Assembly (NCBI GenBank): GCA_051439425.1
Contig: JBFRWD010000071.1
Coordinates: 1-12,019, forward strand
Length of the DNA stretch: 12,019 nt
Direction: 5' to 3'
From: Synechococcus sp.
GTDB taxonomy: Bacteria; Cyanobacteriota; Cyanobacteriia; Thermostichales; PCC-7336
Under the pieces are notes generated by a model. That model was not told the origin of the DNA. It was given only the letters and a program-made list of their open reading frames with translations, and made no database searches. Position 1 is the first letter of the stretch; each line of letters begins with the position of its first letter. Position numbers and translations under genes: made by a program. Shown in pieces: positions 1-12,019 of this stretch.

Positions 1-104
1 ATTGTATGCTGACCACAAGAAGCACATTTGCGCTGAAGAATTCCTGTCTGAATAGGCGTAAAAGATGATTGGGTTTGAGTGTTTGTGGGCGATCGCATTT
101 GCAT
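1..104 (-). CDS. 5' end of a second DUF4157 (eCIS core domain)-type protein, running off the left edge; missed by the ORF track
   Basis: Manual translation from ATG at 104 gives MQMRSPTNTQTQSSFTPIQTGILQRKCASCGQHT, matching GILQRKCTSCGQQ at the N-terminus of the 608-aa protein. GGAGG RBS at 113-117 lies 8 nt upstream. The DUF4157 domain itself would be outside the window. Confidence 0.85.
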   Translation of the reverse strand, partial: MQMRSPTNTQTQSSFTPIQTGILQRKCASCGQHT

Positions 105-228
105 CTGCTAGCCCTCCATGTTTATCAACAATATTTACTACTTCATTCATAGCAAACTGAACGGGATATGAGGCAATCTCGCAGCAAAAGTTCATACTCG
201 TCTCGATCAATACTGGTAGAATATCAAA

Positions 229-246
229 TTTAAAACCGGTTTTAAA
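229..246. repeat. 18-bp perfect palindrome TTTAAAACCGGTTTTAAA
   Basis: Seen directly; self reverse-complementary. It lies between the two DUF4157-type genes. Function unknown. Confidence 0.8.
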
Positions 247-285
247 GACTGCAACAATGCCTCCTTCATTTCCATGACTGAGACG

Positions 286-384
286 CGATCACAAAACTTT
301 ATGCATAATGGGCGAAATTTCAGAAGGTTCTGATTGATTAGTGGAGCGACGCTGCAAGAGAGATCGCTTTTTCTGACACTCTTC
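286..384 (-). pseudogene. Degenerate fragment of a DUF4157-protein N-terminal leader
   Basis: Translates as EECQKKRSLLQRRSTNQSEPSEISPIMHKVL*S versus AECQKKKSPLKRRSAIQSEPAEVPPIIHEVLQS in the 608-aa protein (21/33 identical by hand count). It has an in-frame TGA at 289-291 and lacks the first CxxC. Confidence 0.85.
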
Positions 385-401
385 CACATTGAAGATGATT
401 T

Positions 402-2228
402 TTAGAAAGTTATTCCTAATTGGAGTCCCAACTGAAAATATGGATCTTCGCGCAGTTTTGGTGAACCTCCAATAATTGCAGCGCCAACCTCACCGAAAGC
501 ACCAAACTCGAACCACGGTCCGGCGTAACCAAGCTGTAGGCGACCGCTAGTCGTAAGTGCACCACTAGGGTCAACGGCTTTACCAAACGCGCCGCCTAGC
601 CGGAGGTCACCCCGAAGCCCAAACCCGCCAGCAGACCGATTGGTAGAATAGCTGAGACCTACTAGTGCACCGACAAGGAAAGCTTTCCGTTTCGGTGGTT
701 CGAGCTGTCCTAAGTATGCTCCGTATCCACCTACCAGTAAACGCCACCGACGTAAGCGGTTCAGGGGAAAACCCGCTGCCAACTCTAAGCCTTGCCCCAA
801 ACTCCAGACTCCTCCAAATTTCCCTGTAAAGGCGAGGTCTAATCCTATTACGACATCGATTACAACAGGGCGCGGTGCTGCTTTTATGCTGAAGCGACAT
901 TTGGGAAATTTTCGACCGAGCCATGCGGGCATAAATGAGAAATGTCGCGGGTGCAACACTGCGCGCCTACCAAAGGAACTATGAGACGCCATCGCTGACC
1001 AGTCACTCTCATTCACGTGCGAGCGCTCACCTGCTGCCCGCCCTTTCAATTCCGGTACGCTGGCTCGTGCAGCATACTCATCAGGCAAACCGAGAACAAT
1101 ATGACCTGCCTCATGCCACAATGTCCCTCCCGAGACACCACCAAGAAGTGCGGTAAACCAATCATCTCCACCAGCAAATATCTGAGCTTCATTAGATCGG
1201 CCTGTATCACTTCTAAGCTCAACTTCAGCAGCATTAGCCGACTTTCCCTCACGGGCAACCACTGTCACCTTGATCTCCTTCCCACGGCACGGCAGAGTGC
1301 AAGCCTTATCACTGCCTACGCTCAGTGTGATCCAGCCATTGAGACGTTTGTTCGCCACCTGCAGGATCTTCGTTTTAAGATTGTCGAACTTCTTGGAGGT
1401 TAGCCGAACCTTTTTGTCCTTGGGATGAGTAAAGTTAATTGCCATCGTCGAAGTCAAAGTGCACTGAGCCTGATTGAATTCCAGCAAGATAGGCCCAGGT
1501 TGGGCGAATAACGGATCGCCTTTCCTTTGTACCTGCTCGCGGATGATATCCCCCTTTTTGGTAAGAGTTCTTGGTACATCAGTCCCATTCTGCCCTGGCC
1601 AGGGTTTGAATGTCTGTCGCTGCAGAATATTTTTATTTAATCGCTTTATAGAATTCAGAGGCAGTGGCAGATCTCTGGCGATGTATTGTGCCACTGTGTC
1701 TGCCTGTATTTCAGAGGTATCGCTAGGTCGACTGATAGTCAAGAGGTTTCGACGCTGCACTTTTTGTGAACCTTGCTGTACTACGTGAGTCAACTCATGC
1801 GCCAGTAGTCTTTGGCCCTTGGTCGTACCAGGCATATACTGACCCTCTCCAAATATTACATCACGACCTACAGTATACGCCACCGCATTTACTGTAGCTG
1901 CTGATTCAGCTGCTTGTGTGTTGTTATGCACGCGTACCTGGCTGAAATCGTGCCCGAAGCGTGACTCCATAAAGGAACGTGTTTGGTGATCCAAAAGCTG
2001 ACCAGGCGATTGCAATACCTCATGTATGATGGGTGGTACTTCAGCAGGTTCAGACTGAATGGCGGAACGACGCTTCAAGGGCGATTTTTTCTTCTGGCAT
2101 TCAGCACACTCACCACCTGCAATCATCTGCTGCCCGCAAGACGTACATTTGCGTTGCAAGATCCCGCTAGAAAGCGGATGCGTTGTTGGCATCTGTTGCT
2201 GAGTCTGAGTTACACTTTCACGAGTCAC
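402..2228 (-). CDS. DUF4157 (eCIS core domain) protein with zinc metalloprotease domain and C-terminal beta-barrel-like domain; putative eCIS effector
   Basis: N-terminal LQRKCxxC..ECxxC leader. DUF4157 hallmarks MESRFGHDFSQVRVH, AYTVGRDVIFG and LLAHELTHVVQQ (~1773-2010). Second motif HEAGHIVLGLPDEY (1074-1115) followed by WSAMAS. Gly/aromatic amphipathic strands end in LGLQLGITF. GTG start overlaps the upstream TGA (GTGA). Confidence 0.88.
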   Translation of the reverse strand: MTRESVTQTQQQMPTTHPLSSGILQRKCTSCGQQMIAGGECAECQKKKSPLKRRSAIQSEPAEVPPIIHEVLQSPGQLLDHQTRSFMESRFGHDFSQVRVHNNTQAAESAATVNAVAYTVGRDVIFGEGQYMPGTTKGQRLLAHELTHVVQQGSQKVQRRNLLTISRPSDTSEIQADTVAQYIARDLPLPLNSIKRLNKNILQRQTFKPWPGQNGTDVPRTLTKKGDIIREQVQRKGDPLFAQPGPILLEFNQAQCTLTSTMAINFTHPKDKKVRLTSKKFDNLKTKILQVANKRLNGWITLSVGSDKACTLPCRGKEIKVTVVAREGKSANAAEVELRSDTGRSNEAQIFAGGDDWFTALLGGVSGGTLWHEAGHIVLGLPDEYAARASVPELKGRAAGERSHVNESDWSAMASHSSFGRRAVLHPRHFSFMPAWLGRKFPKCRFSIKAAPRPVVIDVVIGLDLAFTGKFGGVWSLGQGLELAAGFPLNRLRRWRLLVGGYGAYLGQLEPPKRKAFLVGALVGLSYSTNRSAGGFGLRGDLRLGGAFGKAVDPSGALTTSGRLQLGYAGPWFEFGAFGEVGAAIIGGSPKLREDPYFQLGLQLGITF

Positions 2229-2482
2229 AATCCAATCCCCCCATATACAGCTTGGGCAATCTGCTGTCCCAACTGGCTAGGATTGTTTTCTGGGGCCAGT
2301 TCAATCCTTCCTCCTGGAACACGAGGCACTGCCCCACCCCCCAGTAATTCCGTAGCTAACCCCCCCTCAGCCAGCAATCGTCCTAGTTCCGCTTCAACTG
2401 CTGCCTTTACGAAGGGACGCTGACTGGGCGAAATATTTACCCCATCCAAAACCAGACGCTCGATATGAATATTGATAGTCAT
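2225..2482 (-). CDS. Small conserved eCIS-locus hypothetical protein (85 aa)
   Basis: ATGA/GTGA overlaps with both neighbours. The pattern INIHIERLVLDG...AVEAELGRLL...LGQQIAQAVYGGI resembles the small gene commonly found after the eCIS ATPase. Confidence 0.8.
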   Translation of the reverse strand: MTINIHIERLVLDGVNISPSQRPFVKAAVEAELGRLLAEGGLATELLGGGAVPRVPGGRIELAPENNPSQLGQQIAQAVYGGIGL

Positions 2483-4587
2483 ATTTTAACTCCTTTTGGC
2501 TCTTGCCAGCGAAAATCCAGCTCATTAATCGGTCGCTCCAGCTTACGAAACTCCGCCCGCGCCGCTGCCATCACCAGAGGCATTGTCACCAATGTATTCT
2601 TTTGGGCAGCTAAAAATGCTGCGTTGAGAGCAATATTATGAATACTGCCCCCCGTCAAGTTAAAGCGCGCCAGACGATTGCGATCCAATCCCTTGAGCAA
2701 TTCCTGGTCGTGCATCTCGGTAGGAAACACCCGCTCCCAAATGGCCTCACGCTCAGCCAGACTGGGGAAAGGAAAGTTAACGATAAAGCGCAAACGGCGC
2801 ACGAAGGCATTATCCAGAGAACTCCTCATATTGGTTGCCAAAATCGCTAGCCCTCGGTAGGCCTCCATTCGCTGCAACAGATAGTTAATTTCAATGTTGG
2901 CATAGCGGTCATGGGAATCTTTCACCTCACTGCGCTTGCCAAACAGGGCATCTGCTTCATCAAAAAACAAGATTGCCCCCCCATCTTCCGCCGCATCGAA
3001 CAGACGACGCAGGTTTTTCTCAGTTTCGCCGATGTATTTGCTCACCACTGCCGAGAGATCAATTCGGTAGAGGTTCAGATCTAAGTCATTGGCAATCACC
3101 TCTGCTGCCATGGTCTTACCCGTACCACTATCCCCAGCAAATAGGGCGCTAATTCCCAACCCTCGGTTCATCCGTCGATGAAATCCCCATTCTTCATACA
3201 CCGTACCGCGCTGCCGCACCTGGTCGGCAATCTGATGTAGCAGGTTTTTCTCCTCTTCAGGTAGGACAATATCTTCCCAGGTGGCCTTGGGATCGAGGCG
3301 CTGAGCTAGCACGTCCAACTGGGGACGGGTGCTGCCTAAGCAAGCAGCCCAGAGCTTTTCATGTACGGGATCTCCGTTACTTGGTATTTCCGCCAGCACC
3401 GTTTGAGCAATCTGCTGAATTGTTAAGGCATTAAGGTTAAACTGTCCCGCCAGCAGAGCCGGGCTATTAGCTGCCACATCACCTAGTTCCTCTGCCCAGA
3501 TTTCTTCTTGTTCAACAGCAGTCGGTTTATCAATATCTGCTAAAATCGTAGGTCTTCCCAAGCTGTGATGAATCTCTCGGGTACTCAGGAACAACAGGCC
3601 TTGGCAGCGAGACAAAAAACGATACAGGGGTGGTGCCTGTCCCCCTGCCGGTTTAGGACCATCCGTATCCTGGGCATCTAGGTAGAGGGTGAAGGGCAAC
3701 AGCAAGCTCTCCCGTTGCCACAAACGAGCAAAGGTTTCCAACTCACTAGCTTGGACTGGCAATAACTCTACTGGCAAACGGCAGAGATCCAATTTTAGCT
3801 CCGCTGCGGCTCGCTGAGCCATCAGTTGCTTGCTCATCGAGTCCGCTCCAATTAGCTGTATTAGTGGAGGGCGCTGCCGCCAGTGAGCCTGCTCCAGTTG
3901 TCCCATGATTGCTTCTAGTTCTTCTTGCTGGGAAGGGGGCAATTCAATCTCCCGCTCGGCGGTCTCCAAGGGTACGAGCAACGGTGCTAGGCGGTCATCT
4001 AAATAGTTCAGCCCCTTGATATAGTTGACAATGCGCTCGTCTGACCGTAAGGGACTGGTGGTGAGGGGTTGAGCACCGGGTTGATTGATTTCGATCAGTC
4101 GCCAGTAGCGCAGGGGCCGTTCTGGAGATAGTACATCCCAGGCGGGTTCGTCAAATAGGGACAGCACCAGGGCAAAGGTGGGATAGGGGCGGTTGAAATT
4201 GTCCTGAGCCCGCGCACAAAGCTCGGCAATGCGCGTATCCAACTCCAGCGCAGCGCACAGCAGTAACACCTGCTGTTCGAAGCGAGACAGCCCAAATCGC
4301 TGACTCAGCAAAATCATTGCCGGTCTAGGCTCCAGCTTCTCCGCTTCCAGCATCTCCTCATAGGCTTGTCTCACCTTAGCATCACTTACCTTTTCAACAG
4401 GGGTGGAAGCTGACGCTAACCGATGCCTCCTAAAAGGTTTACACAGGCGGCTCAACCAAGAACCCGACGAGGTTGCCGTAGTTGTGCGATGAGAACGGGC
4501 CTGTTGGAGCAAACGCAAGCGCAGCCAGGTCAGGGCCTTAGCCAGATATACTTCGTTATTCTGCTGCCATTGCTCCAGCTCGTTCAT
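2479..4587 (-). CDS. eCIS AAA+ ATPase (Afp15/Pvc15-like)
   Basis: Walker A GDSGTGKT, Walker B ILFFDEAD, VVSKYIGETEKNL and DRYANIEINYLLQRME motifs. Degenerate first AAA module (GADSMSK). N-terminal FGLSRFEQQVLLLCAALELD winged-helix-like region. Adjacent to the DUF4255 gene. Confidence 0.95.
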   Translation of the reverse strand: MNELEQWQQNNEVYLAKALTWLRLRLLQQARSHRTTTATSSGSWLSRLCKPFRRHRLASASTPVEKVSDAKVRQAYEEMLEAEKLEPRPAMILLSQRFGLSRFEQQVLLLCAALELDTRIAELCARAQDNFNRPYPTFALVLSLFDEPAWDVLSPERPLRYWRLIEINQPGAQPLTTSPLRSDERIVNYIKGLNYLDDRLAPLLVPLETAEREIELPPSQQEELEAIMGQLEQAHWRQRPPLIQLIGADSMSKQLMAQRAAAELKLDLCRLPVELLPVQASELETFARLWQRESLLLPFTLYLDAQDTDGPKPAGGQAPPLYRFLSRCQGLLFLSTREIHHSLGRPTILADIDKPTAVEQEEIWAEELGDVAANSPALLAGQFNLNALTIQQIAQTVLAEIPSNGDPVHEKLWAACLGSTRPQLDVLAQRLDPKATWEDIVLPEEEKNLLHQIADQVRQRGTVYEEWGFHRRMNRGLGISALFAGDSGTGKTMAAEVIANDLDLNLYRIDLSAVVSKYIGETEKNLRRLFDAAEDGGAILFFDEADALFGKRSEVKDSHDRYANIEINYLLQRMEAYRGLAILATNMRSSLDNAFVRRLRFIVNFPFPSLAEREAIWERVFPTEMHDQELLKGLDRNRLARFNLTGGSIHNIALNAAFLAAQKNTLVTMPLVMAAARAEFRKLERPINELDFRWQEPKGVKI

Positions 4588-4598
4588 GGAAATTCACC

Positions 4599-5939
4599 TT
4601 AGGGTAATGGATTAATCTTAACTTTTTGGTCATCTGCAAACTGAGGTGGGATGTTCGTGAAGTCTATCGGAATGCTGTCTACCCCATCCACCCGCAATCG
4701 CAGGATATAGGTCTCAGGCTCTGCATCCCTCACGAGAAAATTGAGTTCTGTGGATGAGTCTGCTATTGTCGAAGCCGATTGCACCGAAATTTCGCGATCG
4801 CCAAATAGTAGGATGACCCGCTGCAATAGCTTGACCGGTTCTCCAGGGGAGATTTTTAAAAGCACTGGTGGAGTACAGGTCAAACGCAGGTTGACATCCC
4901 CAGTTGGGGCTTCTGCGATCGTTGCTCCTGGAGGTGGGGTTGGCTGAGTTATTACGAGCTGTGGAGCCAAGCAAAAGGGCAATTCATTTGTTGTCCAGTT
5001 GGGTAAATTAGGTCGTTGAATCACAAGAGACAGAGTGTAGAAACCAGCCGGCCACTGGGCGGGAACCCCAGGAGTATCAGCAGTAGGAAGTTGAACTTGC
5101 ATTTCCGTGGCAGCTCTCTCAGGTAAAGGAGAAATTTCCACTGGTAGGAGAATCGGCAAATCAGAGGGCTCAGCAAAATTGGAACGCTGATAGCGAAAGC
5201 GCACCATTAAATTATCGCTATCTAATCCTTCACCTCGAATTTTTAGGATATCACCTAACTCAGCACTGGGTTTGCGATTGGGTAAATGCACTTCTCGGAG
5301 GAAGGGAGAGGAAGAAGCTACGGTGTTCACCCCCCGATCGTCACTGCCACGGGATAGTATAGGAAGTGCCGCTTTCCCAGGACGAGTACTGTCGATTAAA
5401 ACCACTGCAACTTGGTAAGCTGCGGAGATACGGTACTGGGTCTGAAAGGTAGCCCATAGTTTGGACATCTCTTCCGAAGACATAGGTTGTGGTGTGATGC
5501 GCACGCGCTCCACCTGTTGGTAGAGATTATTGCCCGGCAACGCCGCTTCAATCTCAGCTCTGCCGAGAACTGGGCGATCGTGGAAGATACTCATTGCCTT
5601 ACCTAGTAAGCGATGGGCCAAAATATCCTCGTCACCTTTTCCGTAGGCAGTTATGAGGTAATATAGGTTCAAAGCTAGGGGAGGCTGACCAGTTTCTCCT
5701 GGTTTGACCTGAATTGGCATCTCCATATTACGCCAGGCAGCATTGGGTTCAGTCTGATAAAGAAAGAGGTTGACAAGATTGCTACTGCCTTCGTTGCTTC
5801 CATTTCCGTTACCTGCTTTATCCAGAGGTTTAGTCGTAACAGCAGCATCGGCTAGCTCAGCGGGAAGACCCTTTTGCGTATCATTGAGCAGATTGCGCAG
5901 GGTAGCAGTTACAGCAGCAATGGCTAAGGAGTTGCTCAT
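4599..5939 (-). CDS. Pvc16/Afp16-like cap (tail terminator) protein, DUF4255, with C-terminal extension
   Basis: MSNSLAIAAVTATLRNLL, VNLFLYQ..PNAAWRN, PPLALNLYYLITAY and EEMSKLW..YRISAAYQVAVVLID are typical of DUF4255/Pvc16_N. About 260 additional beta-rich residues follow. Confidence 0.9.
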   Translation of the reverse strand: MSNSLAIAAVTATLRNLLNDTQKGLPAELADAAVTTKPLDKAGNGNGSNEGSSNLVNLFLYQTEPNAAWRNMEMPIQVKPGETGQPPLALNLYYLITAYGKGDEDILAHRLLGKAMSIFHDRPVLGRAEIEAALPGNNLYQQVERVRITPQPMSSEEMSKLWATFQTQYRISAAYQVAVVLIDSTRPGKAALPILSRGSDDRGVNTVASSSPFLREVHLPNRKPSAELGDILKIRGEGLDSDNLMVRFRYQRSNFAEPSDLPILLPVEISPLPERAATEMQVQLPTADTPGVPAQWPAGFYTLSLVIQRPNLPNWTTNELPFCLAPQLVITQPTPPPGATIAEAPTGDVNLRLTCTPPVLLKISPGEPVKLLQRVILLFGDREISVQSASTIADSSTELNFLVRDAEPETYILRLRVDGVDSIPIDFTNIPPQFADDQKVKINPLP

Positions 5940-7024
5940 CTGTTGTCTCCTTGAGCGCGTTGGCGTAAATATTCATCGAGACTCATCACAGGTGATTGGC
6001 AACGAGATTTGGGTTGAGGAGAGACAGGTGGAGGAGTTACCCGAACTTCAATCCGACCAATAGTTACTTCAATGCTAGAAAACGAGCTGTTTTTTGATAC
6101 CGTGTTTCCAGATGCAGTTGTTACTTGTTTGACAGACGAGGTTGTCTGCGGCTGCACTTCAACTTTTGTCTTTGCAGGGCGCGGCATAGGAGTTAATGCT
6201 GGCATGGGATCTGACTCAACCAGGTTTGTAACTATTGGCTCGCTCAAAGGATTAACAAATGGTTGGGGTTGGGAAGTGCTCTTAATTGTAGTCGGTTGAA
6301 TCGAAGTCGGCTTAGGTACAGTTAGTTGAGATTGTATAGCGGAACTTCCCACAATGAGGTCAATCGTTTGTGCCTTCCTGGCAGGAGTAAATGATTGTTG
6401 ACCCGAACTCGACGTTGTTTCTCCTCCCTCTATAGCTTCTGCTTCGAGTGAGGGGGACGATTGTTTTGGTCTCACTTTAGTTGCTTTTGGTGTGTAACCA
6501 TTTAAAATGGGAATACTAGTCTCAGTATGAACAGTCGAGCTATGCTGCTGCCGATCTAGATTGTTCAGCAAATCTTCACTGGCAGGTGGCTGAATTAGCT
6601 CTGATTCTGCTCTAGGCTGACTAGTGGTAACTTGAGAATTTCCTGTCGGAGGTTCTAGGGAAGCAAATGGCTCTGGTAGTTCTAGTTTTTCCTCAGATTT
6701 TTCTTCAGAGGCTTGCCGCTTAGTCACAGATGATATCATCTGCTCCTGCAATTGAGAGGATAGAGGTTGCTCCATAGGCTGATGAGCTAGCACATTTCCT
6801 AACTGTTCAACAGAAAGAGTTGTTGAGATTTGCTCCTCTGAGATCTCTGCTAATTCAATCTGATCGGAAGTAACTGCCCCAGCTTGTTGCTCCCAGCTCA
6901 TCTTTTCAGTTTCACCTGACCCAGCTAATCCTGGCACAGATTCAAAGCGGTAGATCGGGCGGGGTTTAACTGTCTCAGCTAGACCCAGATTTCTAGCTAC
7001 TAGATTACTGAGATAGTTGCTCAT
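5936..7024 (-). CDS. Low-complexity S/T/P/Q/E-rich eCIS protein (candidate tape-measure/lumen protein)
   Basis: ATGA overlaps at both ends. Ordered termini (MSNYLSNLVARNLG; IEVTIGRIEVR...PVMSLDEYLRQR) flank a probably disordered middle. The function is inference. Confidence 0.75.
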   Translation of the reverse strand: MSNYLSNLVARNLGLAETVKPRPIYRFESVPGLAGSGETEKMSWEQQAGAVTSDQIELAEISEEQISTTLSVEQLGNVLAHQPMEQPLSSQLQEQMISSVTKRQASEEKSEEKLELPEPFASLEPPTGNSQVTTSQPRAESELIQPPASEDLLNNLDRQQHSSTVHTETSIPILNGYTPKATKVRPKQSSPSLEAEAIEGGETTSSSGQQSFTPARKAQTIDLIVGSSAIQSQLTVPKPTSIQPTTIKSTSQPQPFVNPLSEPIVTNLVESDPMPALTPMPRPAKTKVEVQPQTTSSVKQVTTASGNTVSKNSSFSSIEVTIGRIEVRVTPPPVSPQPKSRCQSPVMSLDEYLRQRAQGDNR

Positions 7025-7776
7025 TTGCCTATAATCTCCATATACAATTGCCGCCGTCCAGGACTCAATGCCAGAATCTCCGACTCCCGCCAGCCGTAAA
7101 CTGAAGCCAAAGCATGAATCTCCCTAAGAGTTCGCTGTGCCCAAGTGTGAATTTCACTCCAGAAAAACGACACGATATCAAAAGCTGACTGCCATTGATG
7201 GTTGCAGGTTGGACAAAATAAGTTGAGCTGCACGTCAGCTTGCGGATCCTCCAGTGCCATCTGTTCTATGACCTTCTGTTCCACTTCAGGGGGCAGTTGA
7301 TCGGGTTTCTTCACTTTACCTTGATAGACAATCTTGAGGAGACAGCGTTCCAGCAGAAACTGTGAAGTTTCAACTGCCCGATCGAGGTTAGGAATTTTAC
7401 AGTTAGCTGCAGGAAGTGCAGTTAAATCCGCGCTGTTGGGAAGCCGAAAACAAATCTCATAGCCATCAATACTGAGAGAAAACTCTCTGACTGACTCAAT
7501 AGTCGTTGTAGCTTGGATGTCTGAGACTTGAAAGCTGAGCTCTATGCGATCGCCACACTTGGGACAGGTGGCAACGCCCACGAGTTGAGAACCAAAGAGC
7601 CACTCCCGCAACATTAGCAGCAGGGTATCGCGCTGACCAATGCTGAGTTGGGCTAGTGCCTCTAGTGATGTTTCTGGACAAGCCGTACCTAACAACATTA
7701 GGGCTCTCTCAACCGATGACTTAGAAACCCCTTGTTCCCAGAGGTTCAATAATTCGGAAGCTGATATAGGACGCAT
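7021..7776 (-). CDS. Phage baseplate/tail-assembly chaperone-like protein (T4 gp26-like with DUF6760-like C-terminus)
   Basis: Two CPxC motifs (CPKC, CPTC), LSIGQRDTLLL, FRLPNSADL, and C-terminal EIHALASVYGWRESEILALSPGRRQLY. Lies directly after the tube gene. Confidence 0.75.
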   Translation of the reverse strand: MRPISASELLNLWEQGVSKSSVERALMLLGTACPETSLEALAQLSIGQRDTLLLMLREWLFGSQLVGVATCPKCGDRIELSFQVSDIQATTTIESVREFSLSIDGYEICFRLPNSADLTALPAANCKIPNLDRAVETSQFLLERCLLKIVYQGKVKKPDQLPPEVEQKVIEQMALEDPQADVQLNLFCPTCNHQWQSAFDIVSFFWSEIHTWAQRTLREIHALASVYGWRESEILALSPGRRQLYMEIIGK

Positions 7777-7782
7777 AAGTAA

Positions 7783-8316
7783 TTACGCAGGAGGTTCAGT
7801 AAAAGTGGGCTCAGTCGGCTCAGTTACTTCGTAGTCTCGCTCCCAGCCTTCGTTTTGGAGCGTTAACGTCTGAATCGCAACCGCATTGGCACTGGCGTCA
7901 AGTTCTGGAAGAGCCTGATACTCGGAGACCCAGCAGCGATAAACCTTATAGGCGATCGCCAGTTGTCCCGCTTCATTATACATTTCAATGATTATGTCTT
8001 TGCGAAAATCTTTTAGAGAGACCTCCTTGCCTAGCCCAGAACCATAGTTCCAAACCTTATTTGCCCATTGTTCAAACTCCTTGTCGTGGGTGACACCGCG
8101 TTCGAGCATGATCGCTTCGTACTTACTCTGTCCTGGAGACTTCCGAACCGAACTAGGATCTCCACCCTCGCGATGCTCAACAACTTCGGTTGTCCGCTTC
8201 AGAGCACCGACCTTACTGACCCCAGCAACATATTTCCCATCCCATTTCACGCGAAACTTGAAATTTTTATAGGGATCGAACCGCTGAGGGTTAACATTGA
8301 CGCTAAATTGAGCCAT
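7783..8316 (-). CDS. Tail tube protein (T4 gp19-like; Afp1/Pvc1-type)
   Basis: RFDPYKNFKFRVKWDG, EHREGGD, KSPGQSKYEAIMLERGVT, WVSEYQALPELDA motifs. AAGGAG RBS at 8324-8329. Confidence 0.95.
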   Translation of the reverse strand: MAQFSVNVNPQRFDPYKNFKFRVKWDGKYVAGVSKVGALKRTTEVVEHREGGDPSSVRKSPGQSKYEAIMLERGVTHDKEFEQWANKVWNYGSGLGKEVSLKDFRKDIIIEMYNEAGQLAIAYKVYRCWVSEYQALPELDASANAVAIQTLTLQNEGWERDYEVTEPTEPTFTEPPA

Positions 8317-8338
8317 TGACTTACTCCTTCATGATAAT

Positions 8339-10228
8339 CTAGGTAGCAATCTGACCAGCCATCTGCTGGATCTTAATAATGACGAACTCAGCTGGCTTGA
8401 GCGGGGCAAACCCAACCACAATATTGACAATGCCCAGATTGATATCATTCTGGGGTGTAGTTTCTTTGTCGCACTTAACGAAGTAAGACTCGCGAGGGGT
8501 ACTTCCCTGGAAGGCTCCTTGCCGAAATAGATTTTGCATAAAAGCCCCGATATTAAGTCGAATCTGAGCCCACAGAGGCTCGTCATTCGGCTCGAAGACC
8601 ACCCACTGAGTCCCTCGATAAAGACTTTCCTCTATGAAGAGAACCAAGCGACGAATCGGAATATACTTATATTCATCTGCTAGCTGATCTGCCCCTCGGA
8701 GGGTCCGCGAACCCCAAACGACTCTGCCAATGACCGGAAAAAATCGCAGGCAGTTAATGCCGAGTGGATTCAGCATCCCATTTTCAGGATCGTTTAAGTT
8801 GACTTCCAACCCCTGTATGCCATTCAAGGTCGCGTCAATGCCAGCCGGTGCCTTCCAAACGCCCCGTGTTGTGTCAGTGCGCGCCATTACACCCGCGATA
8901 ATTCCACAGGGAACAAAAGTATCTAGCTGTCCTTCGCGTTTGGGATCGGATTGAATGACTCGTGGAAAGAATAGAGCCGCATTTCTAGCTTGTTCACCAG
9001 TTAAGCCAAGGTTTGACAGCTCACTCTTAGCTTTCGCAGCCGCTGTTTCCTTATTAGCACTCCATTCTGCTGGGGAATCAACAATCAGCATAGCGCGTCG
9101 CTCCTGACAATAAGGCAGCGCATCTTGGTATATCTCTTTCGTCGTACTCTGACCCCGCTCTTCCGGGGGAATACATAGGAGATTAAAGAGATCTGCTTTA
9201 TCAAGCGCATAGAGACCTCTTTTGTTGTCTTTTAGTCCTGACCCAGCAGTAAAATCATTGCGGTCTAGCTTGCCGCCATTGCTCCCTAGATCATCGCCTG
9301 ACACTCCAACCGAACGCTTCGTGTCTTTTTCAGAGAAAGGTTGAATCTTTTTTTCTTCATCAGTTAGGGCAGGTGTTTGGTCATCTGTCTCCTTCGGACG
9401 TAATGCCGAAAGTTGGGAAACTCTTAAAAGATTTGACTCATTTTCAAGTACCCGATCTACCCGCCTTGAACTGTCTCTAACCGTCAGATTGAGGAACCGC
9501 TCGGTATCCCCTGTATTCATATTGCGGATTGTCAGGTTAAAGAGATCGTCCTTAGTCAGAGGCTGGTAACGGTCGGCAACGTTGTCATCAATGTCGTCGT
9601 AGTCCACGCGAGCGCGTAGCGCATTTCCCCACTCTCCTTCACTAGCAGCTTCAAGCTTCAGAGGATCACCAGCTGTCGACGTTGGCAGTTTCAGGAGCGC
9701 CTTTCTGGGGAAAAGAAGTTGCGCCGCTTTTTTAAGATCGTCAACAGTGACTCCAGTCTTACCTGCCGCTGTCGCGACAGCTTCCTTGACCAAACCCGCA
9801 TACTCTTTCTCAGCTACTGGGCTATCCGCATCATCTATGATTTCGTCTGCCTTTTGATCCATGGCAGTTTTGGCAGCATCTACATCGTCGCCATCAGCCT
9901 CATCAGCTACTAGATCTGCTACTCTAAGAGCTGTATCACGATTTCCATCTGTTGCGAAGTTAGGGTGAATCAGCCGCACAATAAGCGCCTGGCTACCACC
10001 GTTCTGGTAGAAATCTTTCACAGCATAGCTCATGAGATATTCCTCATGCAGCCCACCGAATAACCGCTCGAAGTCGCCGTAGCTATTGATGGTAGTTGGT
10101 TCATTGACAGGACCCTGCAAAGTGCGACCGATGAAGGCAGCAATGGATGTAGCAACGCCTGTAATCGTGCGCACACCACTGGGAATTTCCTCGATGTAAA
10201 CGCCTGGATAAGTAGGAGTGGTAGGCAT
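8339..10228 (-). CDS. Contractile tail sheath protein (Afp2/3/4-like)
   Basis: TYPGVYIEEIPSGVRTITGVATSIAAFIG N-terminus; RTDTTRGVWKAPAG, LNPLGINCLR, VWGSRTL, WVVFEPND, GFAPLKPAEFVII C-terminal sheath motifs. AGGGAG RBS at 10237-10242. Confidence 0.97.
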   Translation of the reverse strand: MPTTPTYPGVYIEEIPSGVRTITGVATSIAAFIGRTLQGPVNEPTTINSYGDFERLFGGLHEEYLMSYAVKDFYQNGGSQALIVRLIHPNFATDGNRDTALRVADLVADEADGDDVDAAKTAMDQKADEIIDDADSPVAEKEYAGLVKEAVATAAGKTGVTVDDLKKAAQLLFPRKALLKLPTSTAGDPLKLEAASEGEWGNALRARVDYDDIDDNVADRYQPLTKDDLFNLTIRNMNTGDTERFLNLTVRDSSRRVDRVLENESNLLRVSQLSALRPKETDDQTPALTDEEKKIQPFSEKDTKRSVGVSGDDLGSNGGKLDRNDFTAGSGLKDNKRGLYALDKADLFNLLCIPPEERGQSTTKEIYQDALPYCQERRAMLIVDSPAEWSANKETAAAKAKSELSNLGLTGEQARNAALFFPRVIQSDPKREGQLDTFVPCGIIAGVMARTDTTRGVWKAPAGIDATLNGIQGLEVNLNDPENGMLNPLGINCLRFFPVIGRVVWGSRTLRGADQLADEYKYIPIRRLVLFIEESLYRGTQWVVFEPNDEPLWAQIRLNIGAFMQNLFRQGAFQGSTPRESYFVKCDKETTPQNDINLGIVNIVVGFAPLKPAEFVIIKIQQMAGQIAT

Positions 10229-10606
10229 TGGAAGTTCTCCCTTTCAATTATTTTCAAGACAACACTTGCTCAGATAGCAATAGCTCCTACAAGAGAGTTT
10301 CTGTTTCTTCTACCCATAAAGGGCGCAATCAGCTTAAATGAATTTTTGAGTATTGCTTAATGGTTAACTAGGCTGTTAATAGAGATATTGCTGAGCAAAT
10401 TGTTTAAACGAGACTGCAATTTCAACAACCCCTTATACTTATTAATTGAACACCTAAAAGCTATAATTAAAAACAGATTAAACTTCAATTGGAACAATTC
10501 TTTACGATTCCATTAACTTTCTTGAAAAGCCATAGCCAACTTGGCATTAAACTAAACTAGTTTGTGACCAAAGGATTTTCTCAATACTTAATCCTGATCG
10601 AGAGAT

Positions 10607-10762
10607 TCAAACTTTGTTTAACTTTTTTTGATGTCTAGCCATCTTTTCAAAAGGTAACCCGCAGTGCTGACATTCACCTATTTCCCATTGAAAAGGAATC
10701 AAAAAGGGAGTATGACAGTTGATACATTTAGCAAAAAAACGAACCCTATGATGATCGCATAC
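10607..10762 (-). pseudogene. tniQ: 3' remnant of a type V-K CAST-like tniQ (C-terminal zinc-finger region)
   Basis: Manual translation: VCDHHRVRFFAKCINCHTPFLIPFQWEIGECQHCGLPFEKMARHQKKLNKV*. It fits the CxxH-x6-KCxNCxxPFxxPxxWxxGxCxxCxxPFxxMAxxQK C-terminus of cyanobacterial V-K TniQ as I recall it (Scytonema hofmannii TniQ). In-frame TAG lies immediately upstream (10763-10765), and the N-terminal two-thirds is absent. Confidence 0.85.
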
Positions 10763-10830
10763 CTATAAAAATTTTTCTTAATTCTTTTTTAAGCCTTTAG
10801 TATAGTGAATAAATTAAATTTGAGAAAAAA

Positions 10831-11007
10831 TTGACACTTAATTCTTTAAACTAAAAATTGCGTTTGAAAATAATTGACATTTAATTCTTTAAATCATTCA
10901 AGTGCTACTATATGAAGTGATAATGACTGAAACATATATTTTACAGAAGTTATAGGGATTATTCACTGTGACAATAATTCTTTAAATTGGACAAATAATT
11001 CTTTAAT
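10831..11007 (-). repeat. Four ~20-bp direct repeats, putative TnsB-binding sites (consensus TTTAAAGAATTAwnTGTCA)
   Basis: Copies at 10988-11007 (ATTAAAGAATTATTTGTCCA), 10968-10986 (TTTAAAGAATTATTGTCAC), 10874-10893 (TTTAAAGAATTAAATGTCAA) and 10831-10850 (TTTAAAGAATTAAGTGTCAA). A partial fifth copy (AAAGAATTAAG) sits at ~10777-10787. Confidence 0.88.
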
Positions 11008-11012
11008 GTACA
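10831..11012 (-). mobile_element. Tn7-like transposon end of the type V-K CAST/Tn5053-like family (right-end architecture)
   Basis: Minus strand from 11012 reads TGTACATTAAAGAATTATTTGTCCAATTTAAAGAATTATTGTCAC. Terminal TGTACA is followed by two abutting repeats and two internal repeats. It coincides with the FUSC truncation point and precedes a tniQ remnant. Confidence 0.85.
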
Positions 11013-11550
11013 CTTGCCGATAATCATTGATAACCGTAGCATAGAGTTTACCAATACTGGCGATCGCTCTGATCAAGGCTGGCTCGATTTTATCAAGATC
11101 GCGGTTAGGCCAGAAGGCGATATTAACTGCCATGCCGACAGCGGCACCGAGAAAAATGTTCCAAAATCTCAAACCAATATAATTTGAAGACTCGGTAATG
11201 TAGGTTGGATTACTGACTGCCATAATAATTACAATTCCGCTAAATGCTAACAAGCGCTTGGGGATGCCAAACCAATATCCCCCAACAAGCAACACGGTTA
11301 GACCGAGGGAAAGGGTTATATAGGCATTGCCTTGAAACGCAGCATCCCGACTTATGCCTAAAGTAGCTCCGAGAGCGGCAGATTTTAGTTTATCAAGAAC
11401 ATAATCCAGGGTATCGCCAGCAATCGGATGGATGCAGAGAATAGAACCATACAGAACGTAGGTCATGCGTCTTGAATGTAAGGCATTACCGACAGCAAAA
11501 GCGAGGGCTGCTCCGAGGGCGAGTTTGAAGATATAGCGGTTTACGTTCAT
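10963..11550 (-). pseudogene. FUSC/aromatic acid exporter family membrane protein, 3'-truncated by the transposon end
   Basis: Likely start ATG 11550 (MNVNRYIFKLALG). Several TM segments and RFWNIFLGAAVGMAVNIAFWP are typical of the FUSC/ArAE N-terminal half. The native frame breaks after ...NDYRQ at 11013; the final VYIKELFVQFKELLSQ is read from the repeats. Confidence 0.8.
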
Positions 11551-11563
11551 GGCAAAAAGTACT

Positions 11564-12019
11564 TCAATTTTGAGAAGCTGGTTCGAGGTCAATCAGCAAA
11601 TCGAGATCACAACGGCGTGTCTCTAACCAAGACAAAATCTTCGAGAGGTCTGAGATCAATCCTGCCAAACGATGTTCGATCAGTCCTACTTTTAGGCGAC
11701 TTGCTAAGTCATAAGATTGGATTGTTTCTGCCGTTCTCATTCTGTTTAACTGGTCTTGCCAGCGTTGAAAGTCAGGTTTAGGATTGGGAAGTTGTCTTCC
11801 AATTTGTTGGTCAACAATTGCTAGAGATAATTTAGCAAAAGTTGTACTTAGGCTCTCACCCAAAGCGGAAAGTTCGGTCATTAGTTCGAGTAGCAGGAGA
11901 TTGTCCCGATTATCTTGAAGTAACCGACTAATGGCTAGTAAGTGGGCTAGTAATCGTGCTTGAATAGCGATCGCCTGTAACCATGCTTCCCGATTATCGC
12001 GATCTGACGAGGACAAATT
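11564..12019 (-). CDS. 3' part of a helical protein, probably the soluble C-terminal domain of a tandem FUSC-family protein; start is outside the window
   Basis: The frame is open to the right edge, Leu-rich and helical, and stops 13 nt before the next FUSC start. Family assignment is from context only. Confidence 0.55.
   Translation of the reverse strand, partial: NLSSSDRDNREAWLQAIAIQARLLAHLLAISRLLQDNRDNLLLLELMTELSALGESLSTTFAKLSLAIVDQQIGRQLPNPKPDFQRWQDQLNRMRTAETIQSYDLASRLKVGLIEHRLAGLISDLSKILSWLETRRCDLDLLIDLEPASQN

Follow-up and report, generated by a model that had tools for sequence, protein, structure and literature searches.

A contractile injection system behind the right end of a decayed type V-K CRISPR-associated transposon in Synechococcus sp.: possible transposon cargo

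In type V-K CRISPR-associated transposons (CASTs), the genes tnsB, tnsC and tniQ face away from the right end and the cargo lies between tniQ and cas12k, and decayed copies with a degenerate cas12k have been reported, according to the available text of Ziemann et al. 2023 (PMC9938897). The island VpaI-7 of Vibrio parahaemolyticus is presented, in the accessible part of its description, as a type I-F3a CAST island that carries the type III secretion system T3SS2 together with TDH (PMC12150760). Loci of extracellular contractile injection systems (eCIS) are patchy across bacteria, and the vehicles that move such 20-40-kb clusters are mostly unknown. We analysed a 12,019-nucleotide stretch of DNA from Synechococcus sp. 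(contig JBFRWD010000071.1 of assembly GCA_051439425.1; the window), in which the right end of a type V-K CAST interrupts an exporter gene and is followed inward by the 3' remnant of tniQ and by the operon of an eCIS. We propose, tentatively, that the eCIS travelled inside the CAST as true cargo, a reading that we consider plausible while short of probable and under which the eCIS would have lain between both ends of the element and moved with them.

This proposal goes back to an earlier note on the same DNA, whose structural claims could be recovered. The TGTACA end with TnsB-type repeats is present at 10825-11012 and holds four repeats, the tniQ 3' remnant is present at 10607-10762 (E 5.7e-11 to the TniQ of ShCAST), and the sheath operon placed about 380 bp past tniQ starts at 10228, after 378 bp and on the same strand. 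The attribution to the type V-K family agrees with the homology of the end to that of a Cas12k-bearing element in genome G036 and with the ShCAST-type TniQ, and the interrupted FUSC-family gene, which the note expected to be intact elsewhere, was found as such in 37 database proteins, in three loci of metagenome-assembled genomes (MAGs) and in alleles of the public runs X1 and X2.

Right end, tniQ remnant and interrupted exporter gene

The repeats of the right end have the form TTTAAAGAATTA-n1-2-TGTC and were located at about 11006, 10985, 10892 and 10849 (read inward, on the minus strand), two of them being contiguous at the tip and the others lying about 115 and 160 bp inward. An exact 12-mer of the repeat occurs four times in the 4.8-Mb assembly, three of these in this end, and no second cluster of the repeat core was found elsewhere in the assembly. 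When up to 3 mismatches are allowed, the terminal 24 nt were present in 31 of 401 cyanobacterial genomes (40 matches versus 4 for the reversed control) and showed 2 mismatches to both inverted ends of the G036 V-K CAST. The entire 190-bp end is common to the window and to three metagenome loci (L075, L076 and L078) at 83-89% identity. These three loci and the window present four repeats, whereas the tRNA-side (left) ends of locus L077 and of G036 present three, so that the four repeats of the window fit a right end. On the basis of these similarities, the assignment of the end to a type V-K CAST is sound.

The terminal ~44 bp (window 10967-11012) were also found, with an identity of 90% or higher, in at least 3 other contigs of run X2 and at least 5 of run X5, with flanks that differ on both sides. 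The presence of this tip at several sites with unlike flanks indicates that related elements are multi-copy in these sediment communities.

The tniQ remnant aligned to residues 122-166 of the 167 residues of ShCAST TniQ in a search of the PDB, where its matches comprised three distinct sequences, all of them ShCAST TniQ, and to residues 126-170 of the 172 residues of the G036 TniQ (40% identity, E 6e-8). Its natural C-terminus and stop are retained, and its orientation is the one expected for a V-K CAST. The counterpart in G036 of the short joint that separates the remnant from the innermost repeat measures some 3.3 kb and is made up of tnsB (633 aa), tnsC (295 aa) and tniQ (172 aa). A contig of X2 and the locus L078 follow the window end inward to ~10825 and then differ, and a contig of X5 with a related tniQ tracks the window over 10625-10760 and then differs; because these public contigs depart from the window there, the breakpoints were placed near 10825 and 10760. 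Judged from these alignments, tnsB, tnsC and the first ~120 codons of tniQ have been deleted (roughly 3-3.5 kb), and the element is a deletion relic.

Searches of the assembly by tblastn with the G036 proteins gave no match for TnsB, TnsC or Cas12k (Cas12k at E<=0.1). In the same way, no match to the TniQ family was obtained in the assembly beyond the remnant itself, Mu-transpos_C gave none in the assembly and none in the control genomes either, and a k-mer scan of the assembly for CRISPR-like arrays returned a single match, which is a coding repeat. The element is no longer capable of moving on its own, and by these searches the assembly encodes no helper transposase.

Considering that neither cas12k nor a CRISPR array is seen here, the end could be ascribed to a non-CRISPR Tn5053- or Tn7-like element. 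The only PDB matches of the remnant, however, are to the short V-K TniQ of ShCAST, with which it is colinear to the C-terminus, and both ends of the G036 element, which bears Cas12k and a CRISPR array, are homologues of the end. Related ends in the loci L077 and L086 adjoin tRNA genes, in L086 together with cas12k and a CRISPR array. We regard a non-CRISPR origin of the end as scarcely credible.

The frame 10963-11592 carries the 5' half of the FUSC gene, and the break falls exactly at TGTACA, at about residue 193; the tblastn alignment of a FUSC homologue ends at 11014. The 37 homologous database proteins all measure 344-374 aa, the best being 87% identical. A contig of X1 matching the window from 11013 rightward has a loose end, the reverse complement of which extends the reading frame as in the homologue P0010 (GSLATNAQSR; by hand), and record 14 of X2 is such an intact allele, with 14 differences over 154 bases. 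The empty site thus exists in strains related to this one, though not demonstrably in this strain itself. As the end lies inside a gene that is intact elsewhere, the DNA to the left of 11012 was inserted, at least in origin. In the history that we propose, a type V-K CAST inserted into the ArAE/FUSC exporter gene, and its right end is still joined to the 5' half of this gene.

The three MAG loci (L061, L062 and L063) hold an intact FUSC gene with its upstream partner, which has 366-376 aa in the two loci with the whole open reading frame (ORF). This upstream gene is the only one shared by the three loci; the downstream genes differ, and no contractile injection system (CIS) genes were found there. 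The MAGs belong to three different cyanobacterial families, and the surroundings of this conserved pair are unrelated. The pair is missing from 30 relatives of this genome, in which no FUSC homologue was found; a search of 400 genomes of the class gave a single weak one, and the assembly does not contain the FUSC 3' half. The FUSC gene and its upstream partner look like an accessory module that is mobile itself.

The injection system and its contig

The operon behind the AT-rich spacer presents sheath, tube, T4_baseplate-like protein, cap, ATPase, 85-aa protein and eCIS_core protein in an order that recurs in the genomes G201, G226, G215, G257 and G397 at 40-86% identity (Table 1). Judged from this conserved order, the operon is a genuine eCIS of a known cyanobacterial lineage. 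The window holds the first ~10 kb of it, and the cluster of G201 runs on for about 39 kb; the gp25, gp6/J and gp7/I baseplate, spike and tape-measure genes of this eCIS were found neither in the window nor in the assembly.

Table 1 Features of the window (positions 1 to 12,019)
Feature	Positions	Strand	Description
Two small frames, 60 aa and 70 aa (open at contig end)	1..389	-	within a ~400-bp tandem unit
eCIS_core (formerly DUF4157) protein, 608 aa	402..2228	-	PF13699, E 2.7e-32, residues 79-154
Small conserved eCIS protein, 85 aa	2225..2482	-	same place in G257, G201, G226, 38-56% identity; no Pfam match
Afp15-like AAA+ ATPase with winged-helix N-domain, 702 aa	2479..4587	-	Pfam AAA, WHD; 63% identity in G257
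Pvc16/Afp16-like tail cap (terminator), 446 aa	4599..5939	-	Pfam Pvc16_N, E 1.7e-51
362-aa protein	5936..7024	-	no Pfam match; by tblastn only the C-terminal end conserved, in the two closest loci
T4_baseplate-family protein, 251 aa	7021..7776	-	PF12322, E 3e-18; position kept in related eCIS loci
Inner tube, 177 aa	7783..8316	-	Pfam Phage_T4_gp19, E 1.4e-46; 71-86% identity in related loci
Sheath, 629 aa	8339..10228	-	Pfam Phage_sheath_1, Phage_sheath_1C
AT-rich spacer	10229..10606	.	33% GC; 378 bp, tniQ stop to sheath start
tniQ 3' remnant	10607..10762	-	51 codons stop to stop; final ~45 codons of a short V-K-type TniQ
Deletion joint	10763..10824	.	~62 bp between innermost repeat and tniQ remnant
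Right end, type V-K CAST	10825..11012	-	TGTACA tip at 11012-11007 and four TnsB-type repeats inward
ArAE_1/FUSC-family exporter gene, 5' half	11013..11556	-	~181-193 of ~359 codons; Pfam ArAE_1, FUSC_2
Gene preceding FUSC, 3' part	11564..12019	-	homologues directly upstream of intact FUSC in 3/3 MAG loci, 59-72% identity

The nearest relatives of the sheath among the matches listed are 55-67% identical and belong to other cyanobacterial families. The three genomes of the same genus gave only weak C-terminal sheath matches (E-51 to E-54), at the level of a second sheath encoded on contig C33 of the same assembly. This second sheath belongs to another, genus-conserved CIS, whose parts were found on four contigs: the sheath at C33:61598-63274, the tube at C153:7295-7774, the cap and ATPase at C150:11950-15419, and the gp25/J/I baseplate at C97:10559-14425. 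Since the same-genus genomes carry only this other type of CIS, the eCIS of the window is not native to the lineage; it is a strain-specific acquisition whose baseplate half is absent from the bin.

The contig C97, whose gp25, Baseplate_J and Tail_P2_I genes are the only such set in the assembly, was tried as the continuation of the window eCIS and was rejected: its J gene is genus-conserved, with orthologues in the three same-genus genomes G003, G001 and G002 at 93, 78 and 57% identity, and its baseplate matches that of the related G201 locus weakly (23-34% identity). Ahead of these baseplate genes, C97 has a 743-aa ORF, for which a weak PBP_like_2 was the sole Pfam match, and behind them genes for Cache/HAMP, WD40 and NACHT-HEAT proteins.

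The spacer presumably holds the eCIS promoter and 5' leader. No ORF of note and no terminator-like site were found in it, promoter-like sites are no commoner than by chance, the upstream regions of 28 related sheath genes showed neither similarity to it nor a conserved promoter, and Rfam gave no match on 10100-11100. The window contains no tRNA gene; a homing tRNA would adjoin the left end, beyond the window.

At the far end of the operon, the eCIS_core protein is a candidate payload or payload carrier, and related loci have several eCIS_core paralogues at the corresponding position. The two small frames beside it are perhaps N-terminal modules of payload genes that have decayed. Between positions 285-381 and positions 2006-2102, the latter in the 5' part of the eCIS_core gene, the identity is 72%, and in the runs X1-X3 a joint leads from 384 to 1 with 16 letters between, the depth there being ~19-21 versus ~12 beside it. 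The ~400-bp tandem unit runs past the contig end and thereby explains the break in the assembly. A variant copy of this unit, with 10 differences, was seen in public runs.

The window is the entire contig C71 of an assembly of 182 contigs (4.8 Mb, 96% complete), so that the sequence cannot be followed leftward beyond position 1; every large frame lies on the minus strand. C71 and C97 share no overlap with the ends of other contigs of the assembly. A Logan contig of the public run X1 covers 7887-11155 with zero differences to the window; it is an independent assembly, and X1 may be the source sample. The depth is ~10-14 for both the junction contig and the eCIS contigs in X1 and X2, and no weight was given to parts of the window without contig cover in X3 and X5.

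These data bear on whether the contig joins DNA of different organisms at a repeated end, or has been put into the wrong bin. The terminal ~44 bp do recur at further sites of the same metagenomes (3 contigs in X2 and 5 in X5), the FUSC gene is without homologue in the 30 relatives, and the contig is compositionally unusual for the bin, the eCIS part reaching the 96th percentile of tetranucleotide distance from the bin centroid among 392 10-kb chunks of the assembly. The X1 contig nevertheless spans the junction without difference and at the depth of the eCIS contigs, and mis-binning would leave the local structure unchanged and weaken only the arguments from absence in the assembly. We therefore consider such an artefact very improbable.

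Cargo, neighbour or later arrival

The eCIS lies inward of the right end, directly behind tniQ and on the same strand, which is the position and orientation of cargo; no other boundary is seen in the window. The order asserted in the earlier note, with tnsB, tnsC and tniQ reading inward and the cargo following, agrees with the available text on V-K CASTs (PMC9938897), and the eCIS starts at that position and in that orientation. As the C-terminus of tniQ is intact, one deletion suffices for a cargo history, and any non-cargo history requires a second break in the 378-bp spacer. The interrupted FUSC gene, the lack of the eCIS in the same-genus genomes, its outlying tetranucleotide composition and the like depth of the junction and eCIS contigs also speak for the cargo history. 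In the most economical history, the eCIS would already have been inside the element upon landing, and a later internal deletion (~3-3.5 kb) would have removed tnsB, tnsC and ~120 codons of tniQ and fixed the eCIS in place. The fuller version of these events, in which a V-K CAST delivered a whole CIS, probably of 30-40 kb with payload genes, and, on losing its transposase genes, immobilised the system, is possible, and we advance it with more reserve than the cargo relation as such. A bolder variant would have the four-repeat right end mark a family of derivatives that lack a transposase, are moved in trans by the autonomous CASTs of the community and differ in their contents.

Several observations weigh against cargo. 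No left end, cas12k, CRISPR array, tracrRNA-bearing region or FUSC 3' half was found in the 96%-complete assembly, and the locus is demonstrably rearranged. The GC content of the eCIS (49.5%) is near that of the genome (51.3%) and far from that of the transposon relic (27-33%). The earlier note had proposed a screen of eCIS loci for flanking tnsB, tnsC, tniQ or cas12k, and this turned out negative: none of the upstream regions of the 20 closest sheath homologues (fifteen of 16.6-20 kb, five of only 0.9-8.1 kb because of contig ends) had a TnsB, TnsC, TniQ or Cas12k tblastn match (E<=1e-3). Likewise, in the 83 of 401 genomes that have a V-K-type TnsB, no sheath was found within 100 kb of it on the same contig among the matches listed, a comparison made by eye that covered 150 of the 252 sheath matches; the nearest distance among them was 169 kb, in G314. 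Finally, L075, L076 and L078 have different DNA directly behind their four-repeat ends, with no tnsB, and in L078 this DNA carries housekeeping-like genes (citrate synthase, pyridine-nucleotide disulphide oxidoreductase and TANGO2). The missing second end is weak evidence, because the contig ends with the window and the assembly also lacks the remainder of the eCIS. The cargo claim of the earlier note thus stands as to position, orientation and the accessory nature of the eCIS, and is not borne out as to the cognate second end, whose absence the note itself had named as refuting and of which none was found in the assembly.

Further copies of the end were looked for in other collections. A JGI scan for the window end gave seven loci, none with eCIS genes (0/7) and none with TnsB, TnsC, TniQ or Cas12k matches, and among the matches listed no end-pattern match lies in the same region of a contig as a sheath of this type. 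Right ends that stand alone and are joined to DNA of unrelated kinds are thus common in this end family. IMG/VR held no relatives of the V-K TnsB, whether searched with TnsB alone or with a 10-sequence alignment, and the sheath search there gave 4 short contigs with at most 1.2 kb upstream each.

Three of the loci deserve separate mention. In L078 (415-712), the four-repeat right end comes directly after codon 36 of an ORF, whose only PDB matches (five, E 0.26) are all to the first 35 residues of Cas12k; this suggests a CAST end inserted into the cas12k of another CAST, a metagenome misassembly at the repeat being conceivable. In L077 (9982-10024), a three-repeat left end lies ~25 bp from a tRNA gene; behind it come an IS630-type (DDE_3) transposase and ordinary genes, and cas12k is absent, so that this is another decayed CAST. 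In L086 (642-9240), the one IMG/VR contig with a V-K end, a left end, cas12k and a CRISPR array adjoin a tRNA gene, and gp25/J/I-like genes lie ~4 kb past the tRNA, outside the element, so that CAST and tail-like genes are neighbours there without a cargo relation.

The first alternative to cargo is that the CAST landed in FUSC near a resident eCIS island and that a second deletion, starting just behind tniQ and taking out the cargo, cas12k, the CRISPR array, the left end and the FUSC 3' half, fused the tail of tniQ to DNA that was never inside the transposon. The absence from the assembly of the FUSC 3' half and of all left-end features would fit such a deletion, one deletion at the locus is already proven, other copies of the right end directly precede unrelated DNA, as the housekeeping-like genes of L078, and no other linkage of eCIS and CAST was found, either in the 20 upstream regions or, among the matches listed, in the 83 TnsB genomes. 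However, this history requires a second deletion that ends somewhere in the 378 bp after the intact 3' end of tniQ, the three intact-FUSC loci have neither CIS genes nor a common synteny downstream, and the eCIS is absent from the same-genus genomes and so is no old resident. Since the remaining part of the eCIS is not in the assembly either, missing sequence is expected under either history. On balance, we judge a relic fused to a neighbouring eCIS to be unlikely, although it is the alternative that we take most seriously.

The eCIS island could also have entered the cargo region of the CAST, or of the dead relic, in place, through recombination or another integration, and never have been moved by the CAST. 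Cargo regions vary between related CASTs, the X5 relative of tniQ stops following the window just where the gene ends, the GC content of the eCIS resembles that of the host genome and not that of the AT-rich relic, and no related eCIS is CAST-linked among the matches listed. Against such a later arrival, no integrase, insertion sequence (IS) element or other mobility gene was found between tniQ and the sheath gene or in the 10 kb of eCIS. We consider it rather improbable; telling it apart from true cargo requires sister elements.

Comparison with known systems

If the eCIS was cargo, the CAST would be a concrete vehicle for an eCIS and one route of its patchy spread, and the range of V-K cargo, mainly defence and restriction, would extend to a large nanomachine, with a parallel in the T3SS2-bearing I-F3a island. 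We have one decayed example that lacks its second boundary, and we present it as a lead and not as a demonstrated mechanism. It also shows how a V-K CAST decays, the loss of tnsB, tnsC and most of tniQ leaving the right end to persist beside whatever follows. The earlier note had supposed the pairing to be undescribed. This holds for eCIS with a V-K CAST in the literature searched, where, in the text available, both terms co-occur in a gene-editing review and the pairing itself was not found, and where the main text of Benler et al. 2021 mentions neither contractile, sheath nor secretion system among Tn7-like cargo. It does not hold for the kind of event, a CAST island with a type III secretion system being in print (the part of PMC12150760 available). 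The pairing of eCIS and V-K CAST would add an example to a kind of event already known.

The closest complete element was found in G036 (C12:734830-759671, from L004:2831 to L005:11671), where a DNA search of 60 relatives recovered the terminal stretch twice, 24.8 kb apart and inverted. It is a complete ~24.8-kb V-K CAST beside a tRNA gene, with a CRISPR array and a 583-aa protein matching ShCas12k (E 3e-59). Its tnsB, tnsC and tniQ point away from the far end, in the order right end, tnsB, tnsC, tniQ, cargo. Its cargo starts 422 bp behind tniQ and consists of Dnd phosphorothioation genes (DndE, PAPS-reductase-like, SMC-like ATPases) and a PLD-helicase. A DDE_Tnp_1 transposase gene (IS element) and a holin-family ORF lie between its tnsB and its right end. 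The window presents the same succession of right end, tniQ and candidate cargo, whereas G036 is complete, with tnsB, tnsC, Cas12k and CRISPR array.

Compared with ShCAST and AnCAST, as far as the available text describes them (PMC9938897), the window has a TGT-start end, TnsB-type repeats of about 20 bp, a short TniQ and a tniQ that faces away from the right end. Unlike them, it is without tnsB, tnsC and most of tniQ; cas12k, tracrRNA, CRISPR array, left end and tRNA site are not seen, and the right end lies inside a protein-coding gene and not downstream of a tRNA. The usual cargo of V-K CASTs is made up of defence and restriction genes, whereas the candidate cargo here is a contractile injection system. 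The system itself resembles Afp, PVC and the cyanobacterial eCIS in its sheath, gp19-type tube, Pvc16_N cap, Afp15-like ATPase and eCIS_core protein, in the order of G201, G226 and G257. Like VpaI-7, the locus associates a CRISPR-associated Tn7-like element with a protein-injection machine, that of VpaI-7 being complete and accompanied by effectors; unlike the window, VpaI-7 is, in the accessible part of its description (PMC12150760), an I-F3a element with TnsA from another phylum, carries type III secretion, and has both ends and all transposition genes.

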